Source: a virus (lineage: Duplodnaviria; Caudoviricetes). Taken from it: 64,000 nt of DNA. Every line of letters starts with the position of its first letter. Position 1 is the stretch's first letter. The notes beneath the pieces are model-generated. The model ran no database searches. It saw only the letters and a list, made by a program, of their open reading frames with translations, and was not told where the DNA came from. This document shows, piece after piece, positions 18,103 through 62,443 of this stretch. Where the stretch lies: IMG/VR virus record IMGVR_UViG_3300028410_000746. The stretch is one strand, 5' to 3'. Position numbers and translations under genes: made by a program.

Positions 18103-18110
18103 AAGAATCT

Positions 18111-22980: not shown

Positions 22981-23058
22981 GTTCTTACCCTTTGATTGAC
23001 TTCTGTACTGGAAACGAATGGTCAGCGACGATACCGTACTACAGCGGAGCGGTCAACG

Positions 23059-24202: not shown

Positions 24203-24334
24203 GTCCTGCTCCTCTATGGATGGATGGATGCACATGCAGCCCGGCTACATGCTCTTGTTCTGTGACTCGCGGTAGACACACCAAGGAGTCAACTATGGTG
24301 CCAGGAGGTTTGCTTCCCTGGCAAGGCGTAGAAC

Positions 24335-24544
24335 TCAGCTATCCGAGCCCTGGACGAACGCGGTATCGTGCACCGGAGCACAGTCGCCGTCAGGGATGTC
24401 CTCGTCAGACGTGATGGTACCCATGCGATTGGCCGCCACGTAGATCTCTCCGCAAAGGTGCTGGCCTCGTGCGACCACCTGCTGAGTGACCTCTCCGTCC
24501 TTGTGAATGACCGTGATGTACTTCATCCCTTGCTTCGTGCTCAT
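24335..24544 (-). CDS. DUF2997-like small protein
   Basis: ITVIHKDGEVT...GQHLC...RMG.I matches the DUF2997 pattern; context with DUF1257 and Ycf46. Confidence 0.6.
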   Translation of the reverse strand: MSTKQGMKYITVIHKDGEVTQQVVARGQHLCGEIYVAANRMGTITSDEDIPDGDCAPVHDTAFVQGSDS

Positions 24545-24625
24545 AATGTACTCCCGTGATATGTTTTGGCTACAACCCTGCAACCGAGGAAGACCTTACC
24601 GCAACCCAATGCAGAAGGTCAAGAG

Positions 24626-25435: not shown

Positions 25436-25477
25436 ACCCACACCTCGCATAGTCCTCTTACCCCTCCTACAAGAGGA

Positions 25478-44500: not shown

Positions 44501-44543
44501 GATCGGGTGCTCACTCTAGTGTGTAAGGGCCGTCGCCCCTACC

Positions 44544-45170
44544 TCAGTAGAGGAGGGCGAGCGACCCGATGTAATAGCGCTGGCCGGGCGTGCTGTTCTC
44601 AAAGCGTACTCGGAGCTGATTGCCGGACCCCGCGAGTAGCTCAGGGGTCAGGTGTGTCACCTGAGTATACGTCGCGCCATCATCATTGGATACAAAAACA
44701 TCAACAAGGTCTGGCTCGACTCGCTGATAGACCACCTCGGAGGTGCGCGTGCCCGTTCGCGTGAGCGTGTACAGATCCCAGTACACCGCGAAGTCCTCGA
44801 AGAGGCCGTCCGCCGAGACGTCAATCGTATCCGTCTGCAAGCGTCCGTTCTGCGCCCCTACTGGATCATAAGCCGCCAGGAATGCCCTGTAGACACCAAC
44901 ACCTCCCATGATGTCCGGGTCCGTGAGGTCCCAGACGCCGGCCGTATCCAGCTCATCGAAGAAGATGTTGGTGTAGCGAGGCGCGAGCGCCAGCAACGCC
45001 GCGAACTTCTGATCTCTCAGCTCATCGGAGTCAAAAGGGACCACCGACTCGTCGATAGAGAGGTCGTCCGGGACGTCAACCACACGAAAGCCCTGGACAG
45101 ATACGCCCGTGAGGCGGGAGTAGCTGGCCTTGATTTGAGAGGTCGCGCGGTCAAGCAGGTAGAACGGCAT
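44544..45170 (-). CDS. Virion structural protein
   Basis: Beta-rich ORF in the tail operon; VSNDDGATY motif. Confidence 0.65.
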   Translation of the reverse strand: MPFYLLDRATSQIKASYSRLTGVSVQGFRVVDVPDDLSIDESVVPFDSDELRDQKFAALLALAPRYTNIFFDELDTAGVWDLTDPDIMGGVGVYRAFLAAYDPVGAQNGRLQTDTIDVSADGLFEDFAVYWDLYTLTRTGTRTSEVVYQRVEPDLVDVFVSNDDGATYTQVTHLTPELLAGSGNQLRVRFENSTPGQRYYIGSLALLY

Positions 45171-45206
45171 GGCAATCACACCCTGTAGAAAGAGGAGAAG
45201 GAACGA

Positions 45207-48200: not shown

Positions 48201-49565
48201 CTCGACCCCCTGAGCGACCTTGGGGAGTGTCTGCCCATCAAGTGCGGCAAAGACCGCGAAGAGACGCGGCGCGCCGTCGGCATCCACGTAGTTGTTGGGG
48301 TTGAGCTGCCCACCCGCTGCCGGGATCGGCGTAGAGAGACGCAACACGCCCTGAGGCCAGTCGACGAAGATCTGGTCGTCTCCCGCGCCGGCAGGGTCGA
48401 TGGTCAGGCCTTCCAGATCCGTAATCGGGTTTGAGAGGTCCGCCAGACCTCCCGCCGTGGCGGGATAAAGCGTGAGCCCGTAGCCCGGCGTGCCGGAGGT
48501 ACCTGAGAAGAGAGCCAGCGACGCAGCAACACCCTGTCCCACCATTTGAGGAGAGATCAGGCTCTTGACGCGGATCGTGTCCAGGATGTCTCCACCCTCG
48601 GCCTCGAACACGGAGTCTCCAAAGAACTCGGCGCGAGGGACAAAGGGGGCGCCTGCAAGCTCTCCCACCGTAAAGGCCTTCTGCACGGCGGAGGGCACTC
48701 CATCCTGTGCGCGCGGAAGCTCCACGCCAAAGAAGGGAGAGAGCACCACGTCCTCGACGTTGGTACCTCCCGGAGTGAAGGCCACGCTCTCCACGTAGTA
48801 GAACGCGCTGTTGTAGACGGCCCAATCACCCGCCGTGAAGGTCTGAGCGTCCGTATGCTCCGCGACCACGTTGAGACGACCCTCGGCCGTGATCGTGGCG
48901 GTTGCAGACGAGCTATCCATGGAGACCGAAGAGATCCTCACGGGCCACGAGTTCGGCTTACGTGCGAGGTACACCCGCGAAGCCGTCTCATCGCGGCCCG
49001 GCCACGGGAGCAGCTCGACGGGCTGAGCGATCACGACCTGCCAGTACACGTCATTGAGCGTACCCAGGACCGAGCTGTAGATGCGGTCGAGCGTGAGGTC
49101 TCCGCCCACGACGTTGGTGATCTCATAGGTGCCGACAACGGCCGACGCACTTGAGATGTTGGCGACGTTGGAGACCACCAGACGCAGGTTGGCCAGACCA
49201 AAGGTACCCGTAAGGTAGGTCATGTCTGCCAGATTCGTATTGAACAGGGACGAGCCGTTGTTGAGCGTACCCTCGGTACCCTCTGCGACCACGCGCGCGC
49301 CAAACACCTGCACCTGCTGGACCAGACGACGGTGACGCCTTGGTGCCGTGGCCGGTGCGGACTGAGCAAAGAGGGCGTAGTCGTCTACATCCCCCAGGAA
49401 GCGCACGTCGGCGCTCGCTCCCAGGAGGTCGCCAAGGTCATGAAGCGCGGGTGCGGGGATAGCTCCCGACATGAGCGGCTCATCACGAACGCTCAATGCG
49501 TCGTCTGTGCTCGTCTTGCCTTCAAGGGCCTTGCGAATGATGTCGTCGTTGAGGCTGCTAGACAT
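45207..49565 (-). CDS. Tailspike/fibre with C-terminal right-handed beta-helix (pectin-lyase-like)
   Basis: 1452 aa; TVGAQGMFKTL cap followed by many I/V-x-x-C-x-F/I repeats. Confidence 0.75.
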   Translation of the reverse strand: MSSSLNDDIIRKALEGKTSTDDALSVRDEPLMSGAIPAPALHDLGDLLGASADVRFLGDVDDYALFAQSAPATAPRRHRRLVQQVQVFGARVVAEGTEGTLNNGSSLFNTNLADMTYLTGTFGLANLRLVVSNVANISSASAVVGTYEITNVVGGDLTLDRIYSSVLGTLNDVYWQVVIAQPVELLPWPGRDETASRVYLARKPNSWPVRISSVSMDSSSATATITAEGRLNVVAEHTDAQTFTAGDWAVYNSAFYYVESVAFTPGGTNVEDVVLSPFFGVELPRAQDGVPSAVQKAFTVGELAGAPFVPRAEFFGDSVFEAEGGDILDTIRVKSLISPQMVGQGVAASLALFSGTSGTPGYGLTLYPATAGGLADLSNPITDLEGLTIDPAGAGDDQIFVDWPQGVLRLSTPIPAAGGQLNPNNYVDADGAPRLFAVFAALDGQTLPKVAQGVEGFSTDPSLNAFRGHRKVRLEVGERGLEASLPSTSAADIYHDTPPQERLLVESGSTFAGGQGVRLESLSRDRTSARAVRTDVALGLADTELRRAGTVIRPTLSGTNLYDVRMSEGLKQTLSSNDGIWPVVVLDTNDGIEITANGVDFSFTIAPGAAPSAADLAGDLLAAYTAAETALGLTPQRFDSEAITDATGDRVRIQATGELYFGLGNAHVALGFPSNAVVDAIQVVQEWGYANTPQRQLSFDTTSQGIETDVTDVRISGALSGRAVPYESSLRGASQVSNLAYPKFVVSGGVSSLASATQVDVTEVVVKHPLLAISGGSVFATGVASSLDFTGEAAGTYFFYFDVTTLEVETIVSTDGAFDETFEGGSNVGIPLAQVDWDGASIAVSELHDLRRFSSAVLDTTAVTVGAQGMFKTLRAACSYVGLLNPEDVDNNPDPLGAFTIRLLEDVTLSGASEDEVFIPSNIKLDLAGHDLTITNYTGGAGTGPFVLGRSVDLPNANDEGAQNVEICNGRFILNNFGTQALSTAPDIFRSFGAGSDDVTLRDLDVFAQSLGVPEQVATFLSVDTRAVFERVRFVSVFSQSLVTFGVSGDNRMVIRDSLLQGGSDTGPTTNLFDFSGADGRFSMNNTRVFISFNSRLVGDGAAGTSIVNMNVDMSDCTIDGGTSSIVQGISTLIAPLRVRARGCKFTYDVSNSIVDGNFGLDGAIMSFTDCEFIDDQLAGSALNAFLLGDRCELTLQGCTGNNLSISGGSTSSRTVLRISDCKFVAGLTEEQIAQGVIAGVGESCRITLDAGRMFLDNSTIEGRIRAFQDSNGSQLQISNCQLRGATGLAEVVDVEGGFVRITGTQLTNAVAGATATIRIRESTDGGFADEPQAVITGCQIVHTVGAGIYVDGLMDGVNITGCYFRGAGGGTAAVETNNTGVGTNANLSITGGQMEGYPFSSPTSDAVILAAFTNNVQVANVLVRPASGGTQFNEGASTGDIFIETSVHWIT

Positions 49566-51542
49566 TTATCCCTCGATCAGTTCAATCTTGTAGAGCGCAA
49601 AGTCGCCACCTGTGGCGGCCGTCGAAGCATCTTCGATTCCAACCGCGAAGAAATACGAGTACAAGCCCGTCGCAGCGTTGAGCAGCGGGTACGAACCCAT
49701 GCGGAGCGTAAAGAGCACCGAATTGGCCGACTCTACCACGTAGTCTACAAGGGCACCACCGAGTTCCACGGACTGACCCACGTTTACGATGTTGGGCCCC
49801 GCGAAGAAAGACATCACCACACCAGAGGGTGAGTACGTCTCACGGCCCACGATCAGCAAGTCCTCACTCAAGTCCGCAGCGCCCGCCGTCGGGTTCCCGA
49901 CCACTCGAAGCTGGAAGTCCCTGGAAGGGGTCAGCATGCCAAAGGCTCGCAGGTAGTTTCGGTTGCCCGAAGCACCTGAATAGTTCGGCTGGGAGTTGCC
50001 ACCTGGAAGGTTAGGGAGGTGGTTAGTCGTGTAATCCGTGTCCGGGTACGCCAGCTCGCCACCCAGGCCCGTGATCCCCGCAGGAACGGGATGGCCCGAG
50101 GAGATGCCTCGAACCTGTAGCTCGGTAGCTCCCAGCGCAGCGGTGGGGTCAAAGGTGGACGAGGTGCCGCGAGGGTCGGGCGCGGAGGCGTTAGCCAGAT
50201 CAGCTCCCGAGTACCTCGTGACCTCATCCGCGAAGTTCTCCACCTGAGACCTACCCGCTGATGGAACATCTCCCGGCACTTGGTAGCCTGCCGCCGTGTG
50301 GACCAGCAACACGTTCGTGTCGGAGTTGGCTTGCGTGTCCTGACGACCAAAGGGGTCCGTCGCCTGGAGAGCTGGAGACCCTGCGAGCACCAGTCCCCCG
50401 GCGTCCGGGTTCAGGAACAGGCCCGCAGAAGCGTCGGAGCCCACCAGGATGGGGTTAGGCGAATAGTCGGTGTACGTCGGAGTCTGGACGGCGCCCTCGG
50501 TGTACTCAAGCGTGAGAGCCTCCTCAAGGAAGGAGTCCGCGTAGACACCCGTGACTTCGGCATCCCAGGCGAAGTCGTCCACCGGCCCATAGTACGTGAC
50601 GCCGCTGAGCACGCGCGGAGTCCCCTCTGCCGTGTCGAGTACGTTGTCCGGGGCCAGCGTGTGCGAGTTGATCACAACCGTGGTAGCCGTGTCCGCGTCA
50701 CGATAGAGCGTCTCGGGGAAGAGCTGGAAGTCCGCGAAGGACTCATAGGGGGCCGCCACCTTGTCCGCGAAGTAATCTGCCGAGGAGCGGTAATGTACCA
50801 GCTCCAACGCGCCGAGATCCCCGGAGGAGAGACCGGTATCTACCGAGATCACCACGCGCGCGATCTGGTATCCCGCATAAGCGACCGCAGCCGCATCATA
50901 CACCGGATCAGGTCCCGCGCCGAGGAAGGCGAAGCTTGCGCGCGTGTATGAGGTGAGCTGTGGGAGCCGGTCTGTCAAGGCGAAGCCAAGAGGGAGGCCG
51001 TCTACTGCCGCCTCGGCTCCGGGAATGAGCAGATCGTTTTGACCGACTACACGAGCCGGGACCGCAGAAGCCTCCGGTTCCCCCTCGGTGAAGACGTTTG
51101 AGAGGTTGATGGCCTGCACCACCACACCATCCAGCTTGACCGCGAGCACGCCTCGATCTGCCGGGTAGAGGATACCCGAGATCTCAAGCGCGTCCACGTT
51201 GATCACGCGGGCAAGGGTCCCTGTGGCGGTACCATCCGGGAAACGCCCAAGGACCGGCTCGGGAGAGTAGGACAGGGTAGACGGGTTGAGCGCGTTCAAG
51301 CTCTCATCAAGGCGATTAGGGCGAGGCTGGGGCGCCAGCTCGTTGATCACGTTGAGGTTGGTCTGGACATCTTGCCCCCCAAGGAGGGGAAGCTCGTCCG
51401 AACGTACGTTCTCCGCCAGGATGTCGGGCTGAAGGGCCGGGTCACCGGTGGCCGTGAAGTTGAGCGACGAAGCCGTGACCGACCCCTGACCGGCACGACC
51501 GGACCCTACGACGATCTGAGTTGGGTCTGTATTACGAGGCAT
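49566..51542 (-). CDS. Tail structural protein
   Basis: 658 aa, Gly/Ala/Thr/Asp-rich, inside the tail operon. Confidence 0.7.
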   Translation of the reverse strand: MPRNTDPTQIVVGSGRAGQGSVTASSLNFTATGDPALQPDILAENVRSDELPLLGGQDVQTNLNVINELAPQPRPNRLDESLNALNPSTLSYSPEPVLGRFPDGTATGTLARVINVDALEISGILYPADRGVLAVKLDGVVVQAINLSNVFTEGEPEASAVPARVVGQNDLLIPGAEAAVDGLPLGFALTDRLPQLTSYTRASFAFLGAGPDPVYDAAAVAYAGYQIARVVISVDTGLSSGDLGALELVHYRSSADYFADKVAAPYESFADFQLFPETLYRDADTATTVVINSHTLAPDNVLDTAEGTPRVLSGVTYYGPVDDFAWDAEVTGVYADSFLEEALTLEYTEGAVQTPTYTDYSPNPILVGSDASAGLFLNPDAGGLVLAGSPALQATDPFGRQDTQANSDTNVLLVHTAAGYQVPGDVPSAGRSQVENFADEVTRYSGADLANASAPDPRGTSSTFDPTAALGATELQVRGISSGHPVPAGITGLGGELAYPDTDYTTNHLPNLPGGNSQPNYSGASGNRNYLRAFGMLTPSRDFQLRVVGNPTAGAADLSEDLLIVGRETYSPSGVVMSFFAGPNIVNVGQSVELGGALVDYVVESANSVLFTLRMGSYPLLNAATGLYSYFFAVGIEDASTAATGGDFALYKIELIEG

Positions 51543-51554
51543 GAGAGGCTCCTA

Positions 51555-54131
51555 TCAGGTCAGGGGGTTGCCCTTGAGGCGGTAGACTGCGGCACAGGTG
51601 GTGTTGCTCGTATCAGCAAAGCCTACGCGGTTCTGAGCGCTCGCCTGCACGTAGTCAGCGACCACCACGAGCACAAGAGAGCCTTGACGTGCGAAGTCCG
51701 TCTCCTGCTCAATACGGCCGATGAAGGCGATGAACATCTTGTGCTCACTGATCGCAGACAGCGACTGGGCGAGGGCTGCCGGGCGATAAGCCGTCAGGTC
51801 CACGCTCGTGTAATGGTCAAGGAACTCGGCGTTCTCGGTGGTGACGTTGATCGGATCTCGGAAGGTGAACGACTCGACCGGGACCAGAGGCACCAGCGTG
51901 TTCAGCTCCACAAAGCCCGTCGTCGCGTCGAAGTCATCAATCGAGATGGGCCCCGGCGCGCTAAGCTCGGCCTCCGAATCATACGGAGCGTCCACGTGCA
52001 CCGGGATCTGAGCCATCGGCGCTTCGTACGGGTAACTCGTCAAAGGAGACCCGGACCCCGTAGTCCCCACGCGCATGCGGGGCGAGATCGCGAGAGGCTT
52101 GACCACCAAGTCGTTGTTGGGCGTGACGTTCTGGAGGAACTCGAACTGAATCGTCTGCACCGAATGCGTCAAGTAGTAGAGCGTGATCGGTGTACCGTTG
52201 GTCGAGAACGCGCGCGCCGGGAAGAACGTGACATCCACCTCCTCATCCGGATTGGGCAGGACGCCACTAATACCTACCTGACGTCCCGCCGTCCTCGACG
52301 CATCCACGACGTAGACCGGACCTCCGCCCGTACCCTGAACCGAGACCACACCATTGGTCGAACCTCCAGCCGCCTCATAGAGGAACTCAGGCAAGATCAC
52401 CGTGGTCGTGTCGCTGGCGAACACCGTGAGGGTCACGGCGGCGTCCGTCGTATAGGTTGCCGAAACCTCTCGATGCGGGCCGTCCTCATAGTCGACCTGG
52501 AGGTAGGGACGAATCGCCGCCTGCCCCGCTGCGTTGTTCGTGAAGACGACCCCAATTGCACCGTTGAAGGCGGTGGGGTCGTGCACCGTAGCCACGAAGT
52601 TCGAGGGCACGCCGTCAACGTGTGCGTTAAGCCCAGCTCCCACGGGGTAGAGGACCTCGAAGGTTACCCAAAGGTCTGCCGTCGATGCCACGGTAGGAGG
52701 CGCCCCCAGGGTCACCTCGACCGTCTGTGTACCCAGGCCCGTGATCTGCTCGAAGACGTAAGGCTGCGTGCCCGTCGTGGGGCCCGCCTCATTGAGGGTG
52801 ACCTCCAGGACATCTATGATCACCGTACCGGCCGGCTGCTCATCCGAGAGAGGCTGACCCAGGGTCGAGTTGGCGGTCAGGTCAAGGGCCACCGTATCTC
52901 CCGCCGTCCAGGTCCCGCCAGGAGGCGCAAAGACGACCACGTGCTGCTGCGCCACGGGTCGGTCCGAATAGATCGTACGGATACCGTCCGGAGAGCCGAA
53001 GGTGTTACCCGAAGACGGGTCCGACGGGATCGCCGTTGAGGGGATGAGGTCGTCAGCCTTGAGAACTTGCGTACCTGCCAGCTCCGAGCCTCCCACGTAG
53101 AAGCCCGTGCTCGCAGTGTTCGTGGCCCACGTACGCAGGTTGTGGTCCATCAAGAGGCCCAGTGAGCGTTCTACCTCGTGCCCAAGGTCAAACCCCGTAA
53201 ACGAGACGCGGTTTCGCATATCCTGGAGGTCACCAAAGACGACCTCATCAGAGTAGCGGCCATCCGGACGGTCTGGGGTCCCCGAGACGATCTGAGAGCC
53301 CCCGTTACCATTGCCCGTGAGGTCGAAGGGCTGCGTGTTGAGGCGGTAGACCAGGGTGATGGGGATCGAGTAAACGTAGCCATCGGTCGTGCCGAGAGCG
53401 TTTGCCGGGTCACCGTCTCCAGCGCGCCACAGTCCCGCATCACCATCTACCCCGGTGTACGCGAAGGCGGACAGGGCGCCCAGAGGACCCTGTGCAAAGA
53501 CGTTAGCGTCCGTGTAACCCAGCTTGTTTGCCGTGGAGGAGAGACGCTGTGAGGTGATCCTGTACTGAATCTGGACCCGACGTGTCGTCTCGGTGTTGAT
53601 CACGGGATCTGTATCAATCAGATCGTCTGTGAGCCACGTCGCAGCCAAGGCCTCAACGTTGCCGTTCGGGTAGACCTGAGTGGCGCTTGGCTTGTTGTCG
53701 GTCGAAGGATTGGGAGCGACCACCGCGCGCCATACCTCAAGATACACGAAGTCTACGGCAATGGTGCCCGCTGAAGCAGGAGGAGCTGCCAGCGTGATCA
53801 CGTTCTCGGAGGCGGTGTCCGTGCCCGTGTACTCCAGGGGGAGGACCCAGCCGTTGACGTGCACCACGGGGCGGTTGATCAGGTGCAGGGTGTTCGACTC
53901 GGTGCGGAAGTCAAAGGACGCGTTCGTGTCAGACTCGAAGTCTCCGGTCAAGAACCCCGAGGGGGTCTGCTGGCGGAGTACTTCGCGAGCCTTGTGCGAC
54001 GCGATGTCCTGGTTGAGAATCAGCTCGCTGTCGAGCACCCCCTTTCCCTTCTGGAAGACCACCACGTCATACCCCGTCCCCTCAGGGTCGAGGAATCGGC
54101 TCACGCCTGTGCCATAATCGTTATCAGCCAT
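51555..54131 (-). CDS. Tail/baseplate structural protein, paralogue of 40076-44500
   Basis: N-terminal VFQKGKGVLDSELIL; shared VYLEVW, ETTRRVQIQYR and GLWRAGDGD...LGT.DGYVY.IP motifs. Confidence 0.75.
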   Translation of the reverse strand: MADNDYGTGVSRFLDPEGTGYDVVVFQKGKGVLDSELILNQDIASHKAREVLRQQTPSGFLTGDFESDTNASFDFRTESNTLHLINRPVVHVNGWVLPLEYTGTDTASENVITLAAPPASAGTIAVDFVYLEVWRAVVAPNPSTDNKPSATQVYPNGNVEALAATWLTDDLIDTDPVINTETTRRVQIQYRITSQRLSSTANKLGYTDANVFAQGPLGALSAFAYTGVDGDAGLWRAGDGDPANALGTTDGYVYSIPITLVYRLNTQPFDLTGNGNGGSQIVSGTPDRPDGRYSDEVVFGDLQDMRNRVSFTGFDLGHEVERSLGLLMDHNLRTWATNTASTGFYVGGSELAGTQVLKADDLIPSTAIPSDPSSGNTFGSPDGIRTIYSDRPVAQQHVVVFAPPGGTWTAGDTVALDLTANSTLGQPLSDEQPAGTVIIDVLEVTLNEAGPTTGTQPYVFEQITGLGTQTVEVTLGAPPTVASTADLWVTFEVLYPVGAGLNAHVDGVPSNFVATVHDPTAFNGAIGVVFTNNAAGQAAIRPYLQVDYEDGPHREVSATYTTDAAVTLTVFASDTTTVILPEFLYEAAGGSTNGVVSVQGTGGGPVYVVDASRTAGRQVGISGVLPNPDEEVDVTFFPARAFSTNGTPITLYYLTHSVQTIQFEFLQNVTPNNDLVVKPLAISPRMRVGTTGSGSPLTSYPYEAPMAQIPVHVDAPYDSEAELSAPGPISIDDFDATTGFVELNTLVPLVPVESFTFRDPINVTTENAEFLDHYTSVDLTAYRPAALAQSLSAISEHKMFIAFIGRIEQETDFARQGSLVLVVVADYVQASAQNRVGFADTSNTTCAAVYRLKGNPLT

Positions 54132-54170
54132 GTGTCGTCACCCGTGTATCAGGACCATCAGAGGAGGGAA

Positions 54171-54821
54171 TCAAAACGTCAGCCGCCACGTCAGCGTGAG
54201 CCGCGCCGTGGCCGGCTTGTTGATCACGGGGAACGTCAGATAGTTGCACAACATATCACTCCCCGTCACGTCGACGGCCGCATCATACGCCCCGTTGGCC
54301 GGAAGGATCGGGTTGGTCACGGAGAGGTCCTCGTTTACGTCACCACCAATCAGCCCCATCTCCACGAGCGTACCGACCGCCTCACTTTGAGCGAACGTCG
54401 CCGTGAAGTCGATCACGTTGGTAGGGTAGAGAACCGGTGATCCGCCCGAATCTACAAAAGTCGTGGACGAGAAGGTCTTGCGTGACAGCTCCGAGTAGAG
54501 GGAGCGCTGCGTGTTCGTCTCGGCGGGAGGGTTCTGGAGATCCCAGCCCACATCTCCCGTGCCAATCGCCAGCGCGTAGATGCCGTGGCGGGGCTCCAGG
54601 GGGTTGACCGCCAACCGCGCCAGAAGAAGGCTCAGGTCGAGCGTGACCACGTTGTGCACCTCGAAGGTCTCCACGCGGCCGTCGTCATGCTCCAGGCGAA
54701 AGAACACATTTCCACGGATACCCTGCTTACGCTTGCCGAGGTATCGGTCCTCATAAAGAGAGCCGAGCGCGGACCGCGCCGAAGCGACCAGGGCACGGAG
54801 CTTGTCTTGGTAGGTGGGCAT
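54171..54821 (-). CDS. Tail-collar/fibre-attachment-like protein
   Basis: NVV...LLARL..AIGTG...EL.RK...EAVG.L.EMGL...INK...LTLTWRLTF pattern; GAGG RBS before ATG 54821. Confidence 0.7.
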   Translation of the reverse strand: MPTYQDKLRALVASARSALGSLYEDRYLGKRKQGIRGNVFFRLEHDDGRVETFEVHNVVTLDLSLLLARLAVNPLEPRHGIYALAIGTGDVGWDLQNPPAETNTQRSLYSELSRKTFSSTTFVDSGGSPVLYPTNVIDFTATFAQSEAVGTLVEMGLIGGDVNEDLSVTNPILPANGAYDAAVDVTGSDMLCNYLTFPVINKPATARLTLTWRLTF

Positions 54822-54839
54822 GGCGACAATGACCTCAAA

Positions 54840-54879
54840 TGTAAGAGACTCGGGGCGGTTACACTCCGAGTCTCTTACA
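54840..54879 (-). terminator. 14-bp perfect hairpin downstream of CRISPR array 2 (possible pre-crRNA terminator)
   Basis: TGTAAGAGACTCGG / CCGAGTCTCTTACA followed by TTT on the minus strand. Confidence 0.55.
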
Positions 54880-54971
54880 AGTGAATTAGAGAAGCCCCTA
54901 CGCCGACGGCTCAAGCACCTCCGCGATACATTCGCAAAGGTCGTCACAGAAGACCGGCCCCCCGTCCTGCG

Positions 54972-55364
54972 GGAACATCCCCACGTGCGTGGGGAAGGGA
55001 CCTGATGCCCGCGCGTCATGATCTCGGCCACGGGGACATCCCCGCGTGTGCGGGGAAGGGTCGTGTGCCCCCTTCGCGAAGGTCTTTCCGACGGGGACAT
55101 CCCCGCGTACACGGGGAGGGGCTAGCGGCCTCACCCGCGCCCGTTGAATGGACGGGAACATCCCCGCGTGTGCGGGGAGGGGCTCTAGGATACTATGATA
55201 CTTCTTTTCAAAGTGGGAACATCCCCGCGTGTGCGGGGAGGGGGTGCCTGCGGCTCCCGCGAGGCTGACGAAGCTGGGGACATCCCCGCGTACACGGGGA
55301 GGGGGACGGCTCGACCGGGACAGCCTCCGGGACCGGGGGACATCCCCGCGTACACGGGGAGGGG
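54972..55364 (-). CRISPR. CRISPR array 2, type I-E-like: 7 repeats (mostly CCCCTCCCCG[CT][AG][CT]ACGCGGGGATGT[TC]CC) and 6 spacers of 32-33 bp
   Basis: Repeats at 54972, 55033, 55094, 55155, 55216, 55277 and 55337; 61-bp period; inverted relative to array 1. Confidence 0.96.
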
Positions 55365-55448
55365 TCTGTGCCAAGAAGTCACATGAGCGGAATCACGTAA
55401 GTATTCGGTTTTCAAAGACTTTCAGAGTCCAGTGCCAAACAAGGTCAC
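55365..55448 (-). promoter_or_regulatory. CRISPR leader 2 (84 bp)
   Basis: Reverse complement is about 90% identical to 1629-1712. Confidence 0.85.
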
Positions 55449-55474
55449 CCTTGGGCGACACTCTCGACGTCCTT

Positions 55475-55504
55475 ATGGTAACCTTGAGGGTGGAGGCGTG
55501 TCAA
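55475..55504 (-). promoter_or_regulatory. Sigma70-type promoter of CRISPR array 2 (TTGACA-N18-TACCAT)
   Basis: Same architecture as 1553-1582; 26 bp from the leader. Confidence 0.65.
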
Positions 55505-55518
55505 GAGAAATCCCAAGC

Positions 55519-55848
55519 TCACAGCTTCCGAAGAATCGTACGTGAGGTCGCGTCCCCCACGATGGTACAAAGATCAAGCCCGACCCTCCTGAACGACCTC
55601 TGGATCTCATCGTCTGTGATGTTTTCAGGGAGCTTCCAGTCCATCTGGTCCCACATCACCTTCGAGATTTGAGCGCCTAGAGGAGTCTCCAGATCCTCTT
55701 CGCTACGGATCAGGGCGAGGTCCCCCATGAGCAACTCCAGACCTTCCTTATCGGTCTGATCTCCTGATGCCGTGTACGCGTCGTAGATGCTGGCGGCGGC
55801 GCAGTAGATGGGGTCCGTATACGTGGCGTTGGCGTAAACGTAGGACAT
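55519..55848 (-). CDS. Hypothetical early protein (MSYVYANAT...)
   Basis: AGGAG RBS behind the promoter at 55887-55915. Confidence 0.7.
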   Translation of the reverse strand: MSYVYANATYTDPIYCAAASIYDAYTASGDQTDKEGLELLMGDLALIRSEEDLETPLGAQISKVMWDQMDWKLPENITDDEIQRSFRRVGLDLCTIVGDATSRTILRKL

Positions 55849-55873
55849 GTCGTATCTCCTGTAGTGTCGGATT

Positions 55874-55915
55874 GTCTTGCACACTCTATATACCACAAGC
55901 ATGGTGGTTCGTAAA
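55874..55915 (-). promoter_or_regulatory. Early promoter cassette TTTACG-N17-TATATA with TGTGG
   Basis: 26-bp core differs by one base from 16921-16946. Confidence 0.85.
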
Positions 55916-56152
55916 AGCCATCACGCGTTGGTAGGTCTTTTGAACCTCCTCCACAAGCCTTCGACAGTAGGCTCTCTCAAGGTCAGCGTCGCTAGCCTCT
56001 GGAGGAAGATCCAAGGTCTCGTCGGACCGCAAGGCGGCGAGGAGGAGCTGGCTCGAAGGATTCTGCCTAATGTAGTGCTGGTAGAAGTCTCCAGGGACGT
56101 CGTGACTCCTCAGAGCTGCCAAGGCCTTCTTGTAGTTTTCAGAATCGGCCAT
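55886..56152 (-). CDS. Hypothetical protein (MADSENYKK...)
   Basis: GGAG RBS; 88 aa; 3' end overlaps the next promoter. Confidence 0.6.
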   Translation of the reverse strand: MADSENYKKALAALRSHDVPGDFYQHYIRQNPSSQLLLAALRSDETLDLPPEASDADLERAYCRRLVEEVQKTYQRVMAFTNHHACGI

Positions 56153-56176
56153 CCTATACTCCCAGTCGCAAGGGGC

Positions 56177-56488
56177 TCAGTTACCGGCACGAGCGATGCG
56201 CCTATGGGCGAACTCCCAGGTGGGGCGGGTCACCCGAGGCATGAGGTCCTTTGCGGCGGCGAAAAACGCCTCGAAGGCCTCTTGCCCGGAACAGTTCAAC
56301 TCTATGTCGTGGTCTTCCCACAGCTCTTCGATGATGCTCTCTCCGAACTCAGATTGGGACAGACCCTCGCCGGGGTCGAGTCGCCAGTCCGAGCACATGG
56401 CGCGGAGCCCAACGTTGGCACTCCGGTCGCTTCCTCGCACGCCGAATGCGTGCTGTATCTTCTGGATCAATTCGGCTTGGTGGTTCAT
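56177..56488 (-). CDS. Hypothetical early protein (MNHQAELIQK...)
   Basis: GAGGAG RBS behind the promoter at 56528-56556. Confidence 0.7.
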   Translation of the reverse strand: MNHQAELIQKIQHAFGVRGSDRSANVGLRAMCSDWRLDPGEGLSQSEFGESIIEELWEDHDIELNCSGQEAFEAFFAAAKDLMPRVTRPTWEFAHRRIARAGN

Positions 56489-56514
56489 GAGGTCTCCTCT
56501 CGGGTCGGTGTGTT

Positions 56515-56556
56515 GTCTTACACACTCTATATACCACAAGAGAGGTGGGAGGTAAA
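56515..56556 (-). promoter_or_regulatory. Early promoter cassette TTTACC-N17-TATATA with TGTGG
   Basis: 26-bp core identical to 16921-16946. Confidence 0.85.
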
Positions 56557-56576
56557 AAGAATCTCCCCCCGGACGT

Positions 56577-56972
56577 TCAGGCCTTGCGCCGCTCCATGGC
56601 CAGAACAGCCTCACGGTCGATGCGCTCGGACTGGCGGGCCTTGAGGTAGGCACGAGCGCGGGTCACCACTGCGAGGGTCGGGTGCTTCTTGCACGCGAAG
56701 AACAGGACCTCCACGATCACCGGGTCTTCGAGTCGCACGGTGTCGCACGCGTCGAGGACCGTCTTGGAGAGCATGAGCGTCACCAGATCCTCATCCAGGA
56801 CCTGAGGATCAAGGACCGCGCGAAGGCACAGCATCACCAGCTCACGGGGGTCTCCCAGGGCGAACTGTATCGTCGCCTCCGAGAAGTTCAAGGCGTCGGG
56901 CTTGACCATGCTCGACATGACGTCATGCAGGCTATCAGGAGAGAGGGATGCTTTGGCTCGGAGTAGTGCCAT
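56577..56972 (-). CDS. Hypothetical alpha-helical protein
   Basis: GAGG RBS; 131 aa. Confidence 0.65.
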   Translation of the reverse strand: MALLRAKASLSPDSLHDVMSSMVKPDALNFSEATIQFALGDPRELVMLCLRAVLDPQVLDEDLVTLMLSKTVLDACDTVRLEDPVIVEVLFFACKKHPTLAVVTRARAYLKARQSERIDREAVLAMERRKA

Positions 56973-57001
56973 GGGTACTTCCTCTTACTTGATTTGGTAG
57001 G

Positions 57002-57403
57002 TCAGGAGTTCTTGACAGCGGCTCGAATCAGCTTGCGCATGCCGACGACGCCCTTGATGCCCTTGCGACCGCGACACGCTGCGAAGAATCGCTCGACATG
57101 TACGGACCGGTCCTTCCCCTGCAAGGACGCACAGGCCTCGATCAAGACCTCATTGGTGAAGAGCCCCATGAGCACGGCCTGATCCGCATCCTCATCGCGC
57201 ATCAAACGCGTCGCCGCCTCCACAAGCTCCAGGGACGTCAGCTCGGGCAACGGTTGAAAGAGGTCAACCGTGCTGGTCAGAGTCTGTAGAGCTGCATGCA
57301 CCAGCGTGGCCGGAGACAGACCCGTCTTCTGCTGGAGCGAGGAGAGGAGTTGCTGCACCTCTGAGGGCAGCGTGAGAGAGACGAGAGGTTCTTTGGCAGA
57401 CAT
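57002..57403 (-). CDS. Possible ribbon-helix-helix (CopG-like) DNA-binding protein
   Basis: VSLTLPSEVQQLLSSLQQKTGLSPATLVHAAL fits the RHH pattern; promoter TTGACG-N18-TATAAG at 57475-57504. Confidence 0.5.
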   Translation of the reverse strand: MSAKEPLVSLTLPSEVQQLLSSLQQKTGLSPATLVHAALQTLTSTVDLFQPLPELTSLELVEAATRLMRDEDADQAVLMGLFTNEVLIEACASLQGKDRSVHVERFFAACRGRKGIKGVVGMRKLIRAAVKNS

Positions 57404-57510
57404 GGGCAACTCACGGCTTGAGGGAGGTTCTCAAAGGGTATCTTGCTCGGGCGGTGACCCTGCAAGTGAGACTCCTTATAGAACGCTTTACTCAAGGCCG
57501 TCAAGTGCTA

Positions 57511-60500
57511 TTAGGGGAAGTTGACAGGAGTGGTAAAGTCGATGTTGGTGTCCACGCTCGTGATGCTGTTGGCCGTGAAGATCACGGAGTCGGGCTCTCC
57601 CACCTGCGCGACGGGAGCATTGAGCGTAGCCTTGAGGTTGTTCAGGAGACTCGATCCGTAGAAGTCCGAGTACACGCTCGCCCCTCCCGTGAGAGCTTCA
57701 TCCGTCACCGCACCCAGCGCATCCTCTTCGACCACCTCACACTCGACGAGGACGGCCGCGCTCAGGCACAGGAGGTTGGCTCCTGGAGTGTTGAGCACGG
57801 TGTCCACGTCATTCAGGTGCAGGATCTGCCCACGATGGCGAAGGTAGTCGTCCTGCTCCGGGATCGTGTAGACGTCCTCGTAGGGGTCCAGGAGGGCGAT
57901 GTCGCACAGGCTGTCACACGCTGCGGAGAGGAGCCCGGTAGTCCCGAGGACAGACTCGGAGCACAGATCAAGCGATGCCAGGAAGGCGTCCGCGTCCCGT
58001 CGAAAGACGACCGTAACGCCATCCTCCGTGATCGCATAATCACCGTTCCCCAGGAGACGGTCCAGCGGGTCGTTGAGCGTGTCGTCAAACTCCTCCGTCG
58101 CTGTGAACGTCGCTTGGTGGGTGAGCGCGAACGGAGGCGTCCCCTCTCCCAGGCGGATCACCGGGCGGTTGTTCTTGAGGTACGCCTTGGTGTACGGCTT
58201 GCGATGAAAGAGAGTGACCTTGAGCGCGGTCTCCAGGTCCGTCAGCGGAGTCGCGAGCGTGATCTCGTTGGTGTCGCGGTCATAGGTGAACGTATAGCTC
58301 GTGAGACCGTCCTGAGAGGTCACTGAGAGGATGCGGTCTGCAAACATGCCGACCTGACCCACCCGCAAGATCTGGGACGTGTAGGGCGTGATCTCGACGA
58401 TCTCCGGGTCCAGGTCCTCGGTCGGCTCGGGGGAGGTGAGCGTGTTGGACTGGTTGAGGTACGCGTGGGGTAGCGTGCGCTGGTCTTCCCGCTGATTCAC
58501 GATCTCGTAGCGTACGTAGTCCCACTGAGCCTCCGTGTAGGCCTGCGGGTCAAGCGTGCCGAACTGGATGTAGCCGAAGTCCGTGTCGACCCCCTCGCGG
58601 TCCGACCTCAGGGGCAAGTCGAGGTAGGGCACTGAGAGTGCCGGCGTTGCCGATCCTCCCAGGTACACGTCCACCGTCGACGTCGTGTGGACGCGGAGAC
58701 GGACCTCCAAGAATGAGCCAAAGAACTCCGCGTCCTCCACGTCGTACTGGCTGGCGTCGAGCAGCGAACCGGACCCGGTGAGCAGGCCTACCTGACGAGG
58801 CTCGTGTGCCGCCTGATGAGCCACGAAGTAGTCGACCTCAAAGGTGCCTTGGCCGTCCAGGACACCAAAGCGTGCCGAGACGTCTGCCGACCCTGAAGCC
58901 GGAGCAACGAGCACGTCAATCAATCCCAGGTACACGCCGTCCACAAAGACCGTGAGGTTATCGCCTGTACGGACCATCTTGACGTTCTGGAGGCCTTCAA
59001 CCTGCCAGTCATAGGTGAGGCCCACAACAGACCCACCGTCCAGTACAAGCGATCCTGCGCCGTCTACGAGTACGAGCTGAGGTGTGCCGTCGTCGTACGG
59101 GGCGAGGTAGATCTCAAACTCACCATCGTCCACGCCGAATCGCAACGGACACAGGCCGTCCACATCGAGCGTGTAGTCCAGAACAGAGAACCTCGTTTGG
59201 CATACCCAGTCGGTGATTGAGCCCTTGCCCACCTCTACCGCAGACGCATCCGCGAGCACGCCGTCATGCGTGATCCGCAAGCGATGGTCTAGGTACGACA
59301 GCTCGTTGGGATCAAACGTCGAGGTGAAGCCCGCGTCCTCCGGGCTCGTCACTCCGCCGTAGCCGTACAGGAACGCGTCTCCGATGATAGGTGCGTTGTA
59401 GCCGTTGAGGTAGCCCCTGGTCGCCAGGGAGATCGGGTTGACCTGCGACCAGAAGCCTTGAGTGAGCTTGGAGAGCGTATCCGCTCCCTGGAACTGCGCT
59501 GGGGTGCCTCCGTCGAAGAGGCTCACAACGGCCTCTCGGGTCGCGTCTGCCAGCGTCACCGTGGCAGCCAAGCCGCTCGCCCACGCGCTCACGCGCACGC
59601 GGAAGCTCACCTCGTACAGGTTGGATTCCTGGATGAACGGCTCAATGCGTACCCAGTTGTAGCCTCCACCCACAAGAGGTTGCCCGGCAGACTGCGACTG
59701 CACCAGTCCTCCTGCCAGCGTCCCCGCCCACCCCTGATTCTGTGAGACATACCAGGGGGGATCGTCCGCCTCCGGAAGCACCGTCATGTCTGTATCAACC
59801 GAGACCCGACGTGCGACCTCTCGCCCTTGAGCAGGCAGGACCGAGTATCGAACGAAGTCCCAGCCCGACTCATTGACCGCGCGGCGCGAGAGCGACCCGA
59901 AGAAGACTGAGTTCTGACGCAGGAGAGAGAAGATCTCCGGTGCCACGGCCGCGTCGACTTCAGCCACGCGAGCCAGGGCCGGTGCGAAGCCGAATCCAAA
60001 GACCTCCAGGTCTCCGGTCGGGCTCTTCGCGGCGCGGTAGGAGGTCAACTGCGTGAAATCCGCTTCCACGAAGAGGTTCACAGGCCCAAGAGAAGGGAAG
60101 GCCACATCAACGGTCACGTCGTACCCGTCGACCCCTTCGTCGTCGACGTCGAGGACCGTATAGATCACGCCCTCGCTCCAGATACGCGAGCCCACGATCA
60201 AGGGAGGCTCTCCCGTGAAGCGTAGGGACGTGTTGACTCCCAGGGGAGCCTCAACCGTTGCGGTCAAGCCGCTCCAGCTCTCCGCCAGGGTCTCATCCCC
60301 GGCTGACGTCAGCACTCCCACCGTACGGAAAGAGCCAGACAGCTCCAGGAAACCGGTCAGGTAGGCCCTCTCGGTGTCTGCCCAGCCCGCTCCGAGCCCC
60401 GTAAAGACTCCATCTGCCGTGTAGCTCAAGACACGCGTGCGCCAGTTGAGCGTTGAGGTCTGCTCAAAGGTCAGGTCGAGGACGCGGCGAAAGAGAGAGG

Positions 60501-61341
60501 CGAGCCCCTGAGAGTTGTCCACTCCTGTAGACACGTCCTCGATGATGTAGAGGCTGTCTGGCGAGGTGAACGCAGGCGCGCCGAGCGTGGGGCCCGTATA
60601 GGTGAAACCCTCCGGGTGGTCGTCACCCTCAAAGAACACGGCCGTGGGGAGCGTGTTTCGCTGGAACGGAGGCAAGGAGCCACGAAAAGACGGCTCGTTG
60701 AGCACGAGAGACGTGGGATCGTTCAGGACAGCGCTGTACTCATAGTCAAACGCCGTCCACTGGTGACCGATCACCTGCGGCTGGGGTGCTTCGTAGGGCG
60801 CCAGGACCGTCTGGAAGGGGAACGGGTGGCCTTGGGCGTTGGAGCCGTACTGGTTGAGCAGGTAGTTCGAGTTGTTGAGCGCTGCGAATGGGATGGTCGG
60901 GTTAGAGACGTAGCTGTAGTCGAGCAGGACCACATCCCCCGGATCAAGCAGGTCATCCAGGACGATGATACCGGCCACCGGGTCTACAGCGAAGACCACG
61001 ACCTCCACGCCATTGACCTGGACAGTCACGTCCTCGATGTCTGCAAGCTCACCGGAGCCGTCCCCCGTCGTCAAGGGGCCAAACTCGGTATAGATCAGCG
61101 TCGTCTCGAACGGCGTGATCGGCCCTCGGGAGATCAAGTACCCCGAGGTCGCCACGCTCATGAGGTCAACGTTCGCCCAGACACCACGTGTAGGCAGAGA
61201 GGACCCCAGGGGCCCCGCGTTGAAGACCTCAACCGGAATCAGGGCCGCGAGCCCGGAGTCGGTCGCGGAGATCTTGGCCGCCGCCCCTTGCGGATTTGGC
61301 CTACGGTGGACCGTAGGGAAACTAAACGTCAAATCACTCAC
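57511..61341 (-). CDS. Large tail/baseplate structural protein with beta-sandwich (lectin-like) domains
   Basis: 1276 aa, beta-rich and acidic; ATGA-coupled to the upstream fibre gene. Confidence 0.7.
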   Translation of the reverse strand: MSDLTFSFPTVHRRPNPQGAAAKISATDSGLAALIPVEVFNAGPLGSSLPTRGVWANVDLMSVATSGYLISRGPITPFETTLIYTEFGPLTTGDGSGELADIEDVTVQVNGVEVVVFAVDPVAGIIVLDDLLDPGDVVLLDYSYVSNPTIPFAALNNSNYLLNQYGSNAQGHPFPFQTVLAPYEAPQPQVIGHQWTAFDYEYSAVLNDPTSLVLNEPSFRGSLPPFQRNTLPTAVFFEGDDHPEGFTYTGPTLGAPAFTSPDSLYIIEDVSTGVDNSQGLASLFRRVLDLTFEQTSTLNWRTRVLSYTADGVFTGLGAGWADTERAYLTGFLELSGSFRTVGVLTSAGDETLAESWSGLTATVEAPLGVNTSLRFTGEPPLIVGSRIWSEGVIYTVLDVDDEGVDGYDVTVDVAFPSLGPVNLFVEADFTQLTSYRAAKSPTGDLEVFGFGFAPALARVAEVDAAVAPEIFSLLRQNSVFFGSLSRRAVNESGWDFVRYSVLPAQGREVARRVSVDTDMTVLPEADDPPWYVSQNQGWAGTLAGGLVQSQSAGQPLVGGGYNWVRIEPFIQESNLYEVSFRVRVSAWASGLAATVTLADATREAVVSLFDGGTPAQFQGADTLSKLTQGFWSQVNPISLATRGYLNGYNAPIIGDAFLYGYGGVTSPEDAGFTSTFDPNELSYLDHRLRITHDGVLADASAVEVGKGSITDWVCQTRFSVLDYTLDVDGLCPLRFGVDDGEFEIYLAPYDDGTPQLVLVDGAGSLVLDGGSVVGLTYDWQVEGLQNVKMVRTGDNLTVFVDGVYLGLIDVLVAPASGSADVSARFGVLDGQGTFEVDYFVAHQAAHEPRQVGLLTGSGSLLDASQYDVEDAEFFGSFLEVRLRVHTTSTVDVYLGGSATPALSVPYLDLPLRSDREGVDTDFGYIQFGTLDPQAYTEAQWDYVRYEIVNQREDQRTLPHAYLNQSNTLTSPEPTEDLDPEIVEITPYTSQILRVGQVGMFADRILSVTSQDGLTSYTFTYDRDTNEITLATPLTDLETALKVTLFHRKPYTKAYLKNNRPVIRLGEGTPPFALTHQATFTATEEFDDTLNDPLDRLLGNGDYAITEDGVTVVFRRDADAFLASLDLCSESVLGTTGLLSAACDSLCDIALLDPYEDVYTIPEQDDYLRHRGQILHLNDVDTVLNTPGANLLCLSAAVLVECEVVEEDALGAVTDEALTGGASVYSDFYGSSLLNNLKATLNAPVAQVGEPDSVIFTANSITSVDTNIDFTTPVNFP

Positions 61342-62426
61342 GGCTCACGTACCATCGTGTAAGAGGTCAACTGGTTGTCGGGATTGTAGACCGCCACGAT
61401 CGTGTAGGTCTCCGAGACGTTGGTATCCGCCAGCACGTCGGCCCTTGAGGGGTACAGTCTCACCGTCGCCCCCGTCAAGTTGTTGCTGCCGTCGTACGTC
61501 TGCCCCGTCAAGCTGAAGTTCTCATGGGTGAGTCCCAGGATGCGCGTCGTCGCCTCCGTGATCGCATCCACCTTCCCATCAAGGGCCGTGACGTCACCCT
61601 GAAGCGTCGTCACGTCCGTAGTCAGCGTCCCAACGTTCGTAGTCAGCGTGCTGACGTCTGTTGAGATCGCGGCTACGTCCGTTGAGAGCGTCCCCAGGTC
61701 CGTACCGGTGTTGGCACTCAAGACCTGCAAGGAGTCTGTGAGCGTATCAAAGCCCGCGCCTTGGATGTCCGTGACCTCCAGCGCGAGAGCATCGACCTTC
61801 CCATCGGTCGTGGCGATGTCCAGAAGAGCCGTGTCGACGTTGCCGTCCACGACTGCGAGATCTGAGGTCAGAGTGTCGACCTTGCCGTCCGTGGTCGCAA
61901 GGTTCGTGAGGACTGTATCGACCTTGCCGTCCGTAGTCGCAATGTCCGTGAGGACCGTAGCGATGTCCGTGAGGACCGTATCGACCTTACCATCGGTAGT
62001 CGCGAGGTCAGTGAGGAGGGTATCAACGTTGGCATCCACGACCGCAAGATCGGTGAGGACCGTATCGACCTTACCATCCGTGGTCGCAACCTGAGCGCTC
62101 ACGTCGTCCAGGACGTTGGCGGCGATGCTCGCGGAGAGGTTGTACTGGTCGAAGGTGCCCAGAGCCAGAGGGTCCTTGAAGGAGATCACCAGGAGGCCGA
62201 GCGTGTCGGTCTCCCCGGCTCCCAGATCCACGGCGTAAATCCCCGGCATGTTGGCCGCGCTCAGCTCCGTGAAGTTGAGACCCGTCAAAGCAAACGCAGC
62301 CGGGACGCCTCCGTCCTTGGATACGTAGGCCTCCACGTCTGTGTCGGTGAGCCCCGTTACAGACGTGCCGCCTGCTGCCAGAATGATCACCACAGTCGCG
62401 GCGGTGGATTGCTTAAGCTGAAGCAT
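61338..62426 (-). CDS. Fibre-like protein with heptad repeats (TDGKVDT)
   Basis: 14-aa and 7-aa repeats; C-terminal domain shared with the upstream gene. Confidence 0.75.
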   Translation of the reverse strand: MLQLKQSTAATVVIILAAGGTSVTGLTDTDVEAYVSKDGGVPAAFALTGLNFTELSAANMPGIYAVDLGAGETDTLGLLVISFKDPLALGTFDQYNLSASIAANVLDDVSAQVATTDGKVDTVLTDLAVVDANVDTLLTDLATTDGKVDTVLTDIATVLTDIATTDGKVDTVLTNLATTDGKVDTLTSDLAVVDGNVDTALLDIATTDGKVDALALEVTDIQGAGFDTLTDSLQVLSANTGTDLGTLSTDVAAISTDVSTLTTNVGTLTTDVTTLQGDVTALDGKVDAITEATTRILGLTHENFSLTGQTYDGSNNLTGATVRLYPSRADVLADTNVSETYTIVAVYNPDNQLTSYTMVREP

Positions 62427-62443
62427 AGAGGCTCCTCAAGAGT

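Follow-up and report, generated by a model that had tools for sequence, protein, structure and literature searches.

A promoter-leader-CRISPR cassette inserted among the virion genes of a huge lake-water phage belongs to a multiplied family whose copies have exchanged parts

Why would a virus carry two CRISPR arrays with the same leader, in opposite orientation and 53 kb apart? The question is raised by a stretch of 64,000 nucleotides (nt), here called the window, which covers positions 58049-122048 of the 125,429-bp IMG/VR virus record IMGVR_UViG_3300028410_000746 (Caudoviricetes). Coordinates are those of the window unless marked as contig (contig = window + 58048). A first-pass annotation had noticed that an array near the right end of the window, array E, shares its promoter and leader with an array near the left end, array D, and had proposed that a promoter-leader-array cassette was duplicated, that the copies diversified independently and that their inverted identity might allow the interval to flip. 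We find that array E is one of a family of at least four cassettes, that it sits in an insertion within the baseplate/tail-fibre module, and that it probably serves as a guide array for the phage's own type I-E Cascade and Cas3, with spacers supplied by Cas1-Cas2 of the host.

The similarity between the two loci was as close as described. Positions 1629-1712 and the reverse complement of 55365-55448, for which about 90% identity had been claimed, agree at 80 of 85 positions with two 1-nt gaps, and a repeat search returned inverted arms of 133 nt with 82% complementarity (1609-1741 and 55336-55468). Each array is preceded by one promoter-like site of the TTGACA-N18-TAC form, matching the consensus at ten of 12 positions; that of E is the single sigma-70-like site found by a consensus scan of 54000-57000 and starts 140 nt upstream of the first repeat. 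Beyond these two arrays, the same cassette occurs on the contig in four copies (A, C, D and E), all with a type-1 leader that reads ..AAGTCTTTGAAAACYGAATACTTACG..CATGTGACTTCTTGGCACAGAC and whose last ~57 nt are 88-98% identical; conservation extends to the two promoter boxes (-35 and -10) and the distance between them. A type-2 leader, ending ..GGCTTGAACATTTGAAGAGTGT, is common to array B and the solitary repeat F. Altogether, the contig holds five arrays (A-E), 35 spacers and two solitary repeats, the array loci being compact with 7-11 repeats and array E having a period of 60-61 nt. All five arrays are built of 29-nt repeats and spacers of about 32 nt. The earlier statement that the spacers of D and E are all different can be extended to the whole contig, as all 35 spacers are unique and none matches another part of it. 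The solitary repeats C0 and F each have their own promoter and leader and no spacer; from their sequence they could be empty arrays or repeat-only RNAs.

A mis-assembled duplicate was considered and rejected, the spacers being unique, the flanks distinct and two assemblies agreeing on both arrays. The window sequence is also present on a 373,477-bp contig in the European Nucleotide Archive (ENA), which is 100% identical to 44171-64000 and over 1-12994 differs solely by one unit of a 12-nt tandem repeat (TCTTCGGGAGGG, 3.5 copies at 3645-3686, one copy fewer in the ENA assembly). As it differs by this unit, the ENA contig represents an independent assembly, and since it contains both arrays, identical and at the same spacing, neither D nor E is an assembly error. 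The source is a huge phage (>200 kb) from lake water: the length of the ENA contig, collinear relatives of 398-437 kb with direct terminal repeats, and the virion and replication genes of the window (baseplate J-like, baseplate and tail proteins, a family A DNA polymerase and an intein-split DnaB helicase) together place it in this class. Homologues of the 216-amino-acid (aa) gene downstream of E occur on hundreds of phage contigs of 300-456 kb, several of which have direct terminal repeats and are rated complete.

The genome that carries array E also encodes a rearranged type I-E interference set, located upstream of array B and consisting of cas3, cas7e, cas6e, cas5e and a cas8e-cas11e fusion (Pfam and PADLOC E-values of 1e-18 to 1e-140). 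Array E itself shows the features of a type I-E array, namely regular repeats and spacers, a stem-loop with a handle, an upstream promoter and leader, and cas genes in the same genome, while cas1 (PF01867) and the I-E type cas2 (PF09707) gave no match on the 125-kb record. The repeats were compared in an alignment of 29 columns comprising 28 distinct variants from this phage and its closest relative. All have a 7-bp stem capped by a 4-nt loop, with an 8-nt handle (AUGUYCCC in E and D) after it, and 99% of the cells pair across the 28 variants. Pair 10-17 covaries, being G-C in 17 variants, A-U in ten and U-A in one. The observed pairing and covariation were reached in none of 500 shuffles, and sliding the 3' partner decreased pairing to 44-74%. 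Three repeat variants gave the identical minimum-energy hairpin, and all seven repeats of E retain both hairpin and handle. The repeats look functional. The predicted hairpin has the shape expected of a Cas6e substrate, and its conservation and covariation suggest that all arrays feed one processing enzyme.

To see how array E came to its position, we compared the locus with related phages, obtained via an alignment of the 216-aa gene family (80 IMG/VR loci). The closest relative, IMGVR_UViG_3300021978_000001 (hereafter G001; 437,490 bp, terminal repeats, 100% completeness), was compared over 217 kb. The 125-kb record and G001 are collinear, genes keeping their order and strand from 403 kb of G001 through its end to 94 kb, with a single exception, a 1242-aa gene with a transglycosylase SLT domain that is inverted. 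In the relatives the 216-aa gene closely follows a 1276-aa virion gene (G001, the loci L020, L021, L023 and L026, and all 80 IMG/VR loci). The gap between the two genes measures 80-190 nt in L021, L023 and L026 and about 490 nt, with one small open reading frame (ORF), in G001 and L020. Here it spans about 2.7 kb and contains five orphan ORFs, two early-type promoter elements and cassette E. No CRISPR repeat was found at this site in G001, the four closest assemblies or the 80 IMG/VR loci, and the five ORFs gave no family match and no homologue in the loci of the relatives or the fetched part of G001. By this comparison, cassette E and the five orphan ORFs are a 2.6-kb lineage-specific insertion in the baseplate/tail-fibre module.

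Possible signals occur in and beside this insertion. The early-type element, a repeat of ~50 nt, has a core (TTTACG-N16-CTTGTGGTATAT) that can be read as a -35 box and an extended -10 box; the core has four exact matches where none is expected, and the same element occurs in G001 at the site matching the E insertion. Judged by this pattern, it is probably a phage early promoter. The insertion stops just upstream of a motif (TAATTCACTTGTA, also given as TAATYCAYTTRTA; 54876-54888, minus strand) that lies 50-60 nt upstream of the 216-aa gene, is kept in L020, L021, L023 and L026 and is followed by a strong hairpin. It occurs twice in the window versus 0.04 times expected and is a candidate phage-specific promoter. 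The second copy, a near-match (25468-25480, minus strand), stands before the DNA polymerase gene. Array E had been described, like D, as sitting where an early-gene cluster meets a co-oriented, probably virion-related gene. This applies to E, which has small ORFs and early-type promoter elements upstream and, downstream, the 216-aa gene with a sub-threshold match to PF25691 (baseplate wedge 3 tail-fibre network component). It applies to D only in part, as the ORFs upstream of D are divergent and the 206-aa gene downstream has no known family.

The other array sites point to a similarly variable history. The same rearranged cas genes are present in G001, together with over a dozen arrays, all on one strand, with repeats that fit ..TCCCC-N8-GGGGATGGTCC. 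Five of these arrays have a type-2-like promoter-leader and four a third leader type, and no type-1 leader was found in the fetched 217 kb; with four copies here and none in this half of G001, the type-1 cassette has expanded in the present lineage. Across IMG/VR, the type-1 leader pattern gave no match, and the type-2 leader-repeat junction was found in G001 only. Array C and the solitary repeat upstream of it have counterparts in G001 (array 23067-23275, solitary repeat 23464) between cas3 and a 198-aa gene, and the intergenic site of D is occupied in G001 by arrays on the opposite strand with another leader type. On this comparison, arrays are gained, lost and re-oriented quickly in the lineage. 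Cas7e was found in G001 and Cas1 was not; neither protein was found in three relatives at a greater distance, two of which are rated complete. Within G001 (13165-18121, locus L233), the cas operon is itself interleaved with arrays, behind the cas8e-cas11e fusion and at two places within the homologue of the cas5e-cas6e-cas7e region, each with a short shared leader ending GTGACAAGATGTCTCAGAGTGT. In a distant relative from the clade (IMGVR_UViG_3300037722_000745, 323 kb; locus L164, 17669-18650), an unrelated array with a 36-nt repeat (GTTTCAATTACGAGGGAGGCTTTCACCTCCCTCAGG) lies downstream of the homologue of the 216-aa gene, at a distance of about 7.6 kb, so that different CRISPR types have entered the clade independently.

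If the type-1 cassettes arose by duplication, have they evolved independently since? We determined identities segment by segment from an alignment of cassettes A, C, D and E. For the promoter segment (42 columns) the closest pairs are D-A (86%) and E-C (81%), with 55-69% for the other pairs. The proximal leader (57 nt) is closest between D and E (56/57; other pairs 88-89%), and the first repeat between E and A (28/29; other pairs 72-86%). Because promoter, proximal leader and first repeat each name a different nearest neighbour, the copies have exchanged segments, and because the near-identical proximal leader of D and E lies between diverged flanks, these two have recombined, at least by gene conversion. 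As judged from the alignment, the cassettes, the inverted pair D/E included, have exchanged sequence by recombination or gene conversion. The proposed duplication is therefore borne out, in more copies than had been noted, and the spacers have diversified, but the proposed independence needs qualifying, since the copies exchange segments. Array D itself is a composite of seven uniform repeats with six spacers (1713-2107), a (CTGTTC)5 run (2100-2130) and three older-looking repeats with two spacers (2164-2310). Hexamer slippage runs (CTGTTC/TGTTCC) derived from the 3' end of the repeat (..GATGTTCC) are found both here, in the middle of D, and at the end of A (contig 23405-23427); this likeness suggests that the first part of D was formerly a separate array that ended like A. 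In array E the four repeat variants follow the order 1,1,2,2,1,3,4, which would not be expected if every acquisition simply duplicated the first repeat.

Our findings are best accounted for, with good probability, by array E being a guide array for the phage's own type I-E Cascade and Cas3, carried on a multiplied cassette and most likely filled with spacers by the Cas1-Cas2 of the host. For its operation we infer the following scheme. Host RNA polymerase would probably transcribe each cassette from its own sigma-70-type promoter, and the transcript would be cleaved at its repeat hairpins by the phage Cas6e. Loaded with the six guides of E, the phage Cascade (Cas8e-Cas11e fusion, Cas7e, Cas5e and Cas6e) would call in the phage Cas3 for the destruction of matching DNA, which would most likely belong to competing phages or to other mobile elements that share the host. 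The cassette would have multiplied within the phage lineage, E arriving together with the five orphan genes between two conserved virion genes, and recombination or gene conversion would both keep the copies similar and let them trade parts. In type I-E systems, the last base of the repeat is imported together with the protospacer. Here this base is mostly C, with G in A-R1, D-R4 and D-R9 and throughout B, and this variability, together with the absence of a detectable cas1, suggests that a host I-E Cas1-Cas2 is occasionally used in trans. Benz et al. (bioRxiv 10.1101/2023.06.23.546257) describe co-integration of the last repeat base as a hallmark of I-E adaptation.

Several observations weigh against this interpretation. 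No protospacer for any of the 35 spacers turned up in the phage's own contig, in related phage loci totalling ~1.7 Mb or in the half of G001 that was compared. Array E had no match among GenBank phages, nor had E3 and D1 in IMG/VR or E1 in JGI metagenomes, where these three spacers were scanned for exact matches with every sixth base left free. The search for cas1 and cas2 covered 125 kb of a genome of ~373 kb, and the promoters of the arrays are predicted from consensus matches only. In addition, the repeats of E and B differ in the first 4 nt and at one or two positions of the 5' handle, so that the use of the same Cascade by both is an assumption. Searches in the opposite direction were likewise negative: the spacers of G001 gave no match to this phage, and neither those of one IMG/VR array with a near-identical repeat nor 120 cellular loci with similar repeats gave a convincing one.

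A bolder view, to which we give a limited chance, is that the cassette is a self-propagating module of huge phages that copies itself into new intergenic sites, including some within virion gene blocks, that its copies, whether direct or inverted, exchange leaders, repeats and spacers by gene conversion, and that guides are in this way multiplied, reshuffled and re-expressed, with occasional flips of the stretch between inverted copies as a side effect.

Alternatively, the scattered arrays may serve the CRISPR machinery of the host, either by hijacking a host I-E Cascade with guides chosen by the phage or as repeat decoys (RNA anti-CRISPRs) that soak up host Cas proteins. Host-Cas use has been proposed for phages with host-like repeats by Al-Shayeb et al. 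(PMC7162821), and very similar repeats do occur in cellular arrays. Among the matches listed, those nearest the D variant belong to metagenome-assembled genomes of Lentisphaerales, Kiritimatiellae and Verrucomicrobia, one from Lentisphaerales having the same inner 24 nt, and the one nearest array B, with 2 nt different, is from Roseomonas. By this similarity, a host in the Planctomycetes-Verrucomicrobia-Chlamydiae (PVC) group is a lead only, and a weak one for an argument from host repeats. The two solitary repeats with promoter and leader would suit a decoy function, whereas the six spacers of array E are unique and regular in length (31-32 nt), which would be superfluous for a decoy and set it apart from solitary-repeat RNA anti-CRISPRs. 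As the phage has a full interference set, it would also not need a host Cascade. We therefore regard a service to the host machinery as unlikely.

We hold it to be less likely still that D and E form a recombination switch, in which a crossover in the leaders flips the 53-kb interval, swaps the pairing of arrays and promoters, reverses the replication/virion block and leaves both isomers coexisting. The inverted leaders share 31 exact nt, and their proximal parts are identical at 56/57 positions although the promoter on one side (55%) and the first repeat on the other (76%) have diverged; this shows that the two copies recombined recently. Furthermore, the arrays of the contig face both ways (A and D forward; B, C and E reverse) where those of G001 all face one way, and the gene beside cassette A that is inverted relative to G001 would fit such events. 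Against this, the D-E interval has the gene order and orientation of G001 throughout and was seen in a single orientation in both independent assemblies and this relative, an exact match of 31 nt is close to the minimum that homologous recombination requires, and gene conversion without crossover accounts for the mosaic equally well. The D/E exchange indirectly supports the ability of the copies to recombine; no crossover inversion of the interval is thereby shown, and the flip suggested earlier is unsupported by the sequences compared. The ORFs flanking D and E had no family matches in searches aimed mainly at large and array-flanking genes, with no systematic search for an invertase. The Logan contigs of SRR6185438 stop inside leader and repeats; a reading of these breaks as population heterogeneity was rejected, since 30-mers of repeat plus flank that are shared between arrays explain them in an assembly with k=31, and for the same reason they are uninformative on the inversion.

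Finally, the least probable explanation is that array E has fallen out of use and is an inert relic, a copy in decay that came along with the small-ORF insertion: the lack of targets found for its spacers, its four repeat variants in non-monotonic order and its distance of 56-65 kb from the cas genes would fit, but hairpin and handle are intact in all seven repeats, the promoter boxes and the proximal leader, nearly identical to that of D, are kept, the spacer lengths are regular and the terminal repeat is undegraded, unlike those of C and D.

The positions of the arrays, cas genes and neighbouring features are collected in Table 1.

Table 1 Features of the array loci and the cas region (window coordinates unless marked as contig)
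Feature	Position	Strand	Remarks
Promoter of array E, TTGACA-N18-TACCAT (predicted)	55475-55504	-	consensus 10/12; boxes and spacing kept in 4/4 type-1 cassettes
Leader of array E, type-1, ~110 nt	55365-55474	-	alignment; 57 array-proximal nt match D leader at 56/57
CRISPR array E	54971-55364 (contig 113019-113412)	-	seven 29-nt repeats, four variants; six unique 31-32 nt spacers
Trailer of array E	54822-54970	-	motif TAATTCACTTGTA at 54876-54888 and 14-bp hairpin, fold z = -4.25
216-aa gene downstream of E, co-oriented	54171-54821	-	phrog_5417 match; opens conserved baseplate/tail-fibre block
Five small orphan ORFs (133, 131, 103, 88, 109 aa)	55519-57403	-	ENA contig gene calls
Early-type elements	4146-4212 (+), 12835-12863, 16911-16963, 18051-18103, 55864-55916 and 56505-56557 (-)		before small ORFs; last two within E insertion
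Promoter of array D, TTGACA-N18-TACAGT (predicted)	1553-1582	+	consensus 10/12, one site at locus; promoter segment 86% identical to cassette A
Leader of array D, type-1	1583-1712	+	includes 10-nt tandem repeat GAGCGGTGGA x3.8 at 1594-1631
CRISPR array D, composite	1713-2310 (contig 59761-60358)	+	three successive parts
206-aa gene downstream of D, co-oriented	2362-2982	+	no known family; G001 homologue adjoins oppositely oriented arrays
Array A	contig 22770-23416	+	type-1 leader
1242-aa transglycosylase SLT gene	contig 23804-27532 (L010:3804-7532); G001 428233-431898	- (G001 +)	between cassettes A and F
Solitary repeat F	contig 27752-27780 (region 27580-27780; L010:7580-7780)	+	type-2 leader, end identical to that of array B
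Array B	contig 48083-48538	-	type-2 leader; adjoins cas genes
cas8e-cas11e fusion	contig 48658-50865	-	Pfam/PADLOC
cas5e	contig 50907-51653	-	Pfam/PADLOC
cas6e	contig 51682-52641	-	Pfam/PADLOC
cas7e	contig 52490-53836	-	Pfam/PADLOC; nearest homologue 33% identical
cas3	contig 53984-56614	-	Pfam/PADLOC
Array C	contig 57295-57628	-	type-1 leader
Solitary repeat C0	contig 57800-57828 (region 57800-57950; L011:17800-17950)	-	degenerate type-1 leader, directly upstream of array C promoter

Further searches yielded few relatives of individual proteins. The Cas8e-Cas11e fusion returned only itself in a word-index search; as single queries in IMG/VR, the fusion and an 858-aa virion protein had no close relatives, and neither had Cas3 in JGI metagenomes. 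A search of a representative library identified the 858-aa protein as a widespread virion protein of the clade. Rfam and tRNA scans of the window gave nothing relevant. Elsewhere in the window, the DnaB-like helicase (29666-32608, minus strand) contains an intein with a LAGLIDADG endonuclease domain, and the family A DNA polymerase (25478-28504, minus strand) has, at residues 601-632 within its polymerase domain, a sub-threshold match to the zinc-ribbon family PF09723 (21.3 bits; cut-off 34.4). Long runs with periods of 21 and 42 nt at 61590-62900 (minus strand) lie inside two large virion-associated genes, encoding a 362-aa protein and a 1157-aa protein with BNR/Sortilin-like matches; they are coding repeats and not CRISPR.

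Systems on phages that have compact arrays and no adaptation genes are already known. According to Al-Shayeb et al. (2020; PMC7162821), CRISPR systems of huge phages almost all lack Cas1, Cas2 and Cas4, have compact arrays with a median of six repeats, and in some cases carry spacers against competing phages or host genes. The present phage resembles these in its genome of >200 kb, its compact arrays, its interference genes, the lack of detected Cas1 and Cas2 and the presumed targeting of competing phages or host genes. A type I example described there is a I-C variant without Cas6, whereas here a rearranged I-E system with a Cas8e-Cas11e fusion is present; unlike the systems described there, the arrays here are dispersed over >90 kb as self-contained cassettes, one of them in the virion module, with lineage-specific leaders. 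With canonical I-E arrays (E. coli K-12, Streptomyces avermitilis; PMC4762764) the phage shares the 29-nt repeat with 7-bp stem, 4-nt loop and 8-nt 5' handle, 32-nt spacers, the 61-nt period, an upstream promoter-leader and the variable last repeat base. It differs from them in that no cas1-cas2 was found, in its many repeat variants per genome, in a Cas7e whose nearest homologue is 33% identical, and in having at least six leader-bearing loci rather than one or two.

How arrays without an adaptation module can gain spacers is illustrated by type IV-A3 plasmids, for which acquisition through the I-E Cas1/2e of the host in trans was demonstrated experimentally (bioRxiv 10.1101/2023.06.23.546257). 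Similar to these (Benz et al.), the phage is a mobile element without a detected adaptation module, with differing spacer content and I-E-type repeats, and in both cases an I-E adaptation complex of the host could act on such repeats. In contrast to type IV-A3, acquisition in trans is a suggestion here, and the effector is a I-E Cascade with Cas3 instead of a type IV complex with DinG.

A phage that is equipped differently is the Vibrio phage ICP1, which reportedly keeps cas1 and cas2-3, with two arrays beside the cas genes. Unlike in ICP1, the arrays of the present phage are dispersed, and no adaptation genes were found on the 125-kb record. The type I-F system of ICP1 is alike in that a lytic phage directs its own CRISPR-Cas against a competing element in the host (Seed et al. 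2013; PMC9040626), and Al-Shayeb et al. (PMC7162821) contrast it as the one well-described phage system with acquisition machinery.

The present analysis adds the lineage-specific leader families, the array inserted in the virion module, the covariation of the repeat hairpin and the mosaic of exchange between arrays. These findings bear on the question of how phage CRISPR systems that lack Cas1-Cas2 obtain, keep and diversify their guides. A natural comparison is available between the phage and its 437-kb relative, as they have the same rearranged I-E machinery and different expanded families of leader cassettes, and the mosaic identities provide direct sequence evidence of part exchange among dispersed arrays in one genome. 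If expression of the CRISPR RNAs and their targets can be shown, the cassettes would become a tractable model for array turnover in viruses and a source of compact promoter-leader-array units for a divergent Cascade. Should the cassette indeed prove to be a self-propagating module, recombination would give CRISPR systems without adaptation genes a means of multiplying, reshuffling and re-expressing their guides.

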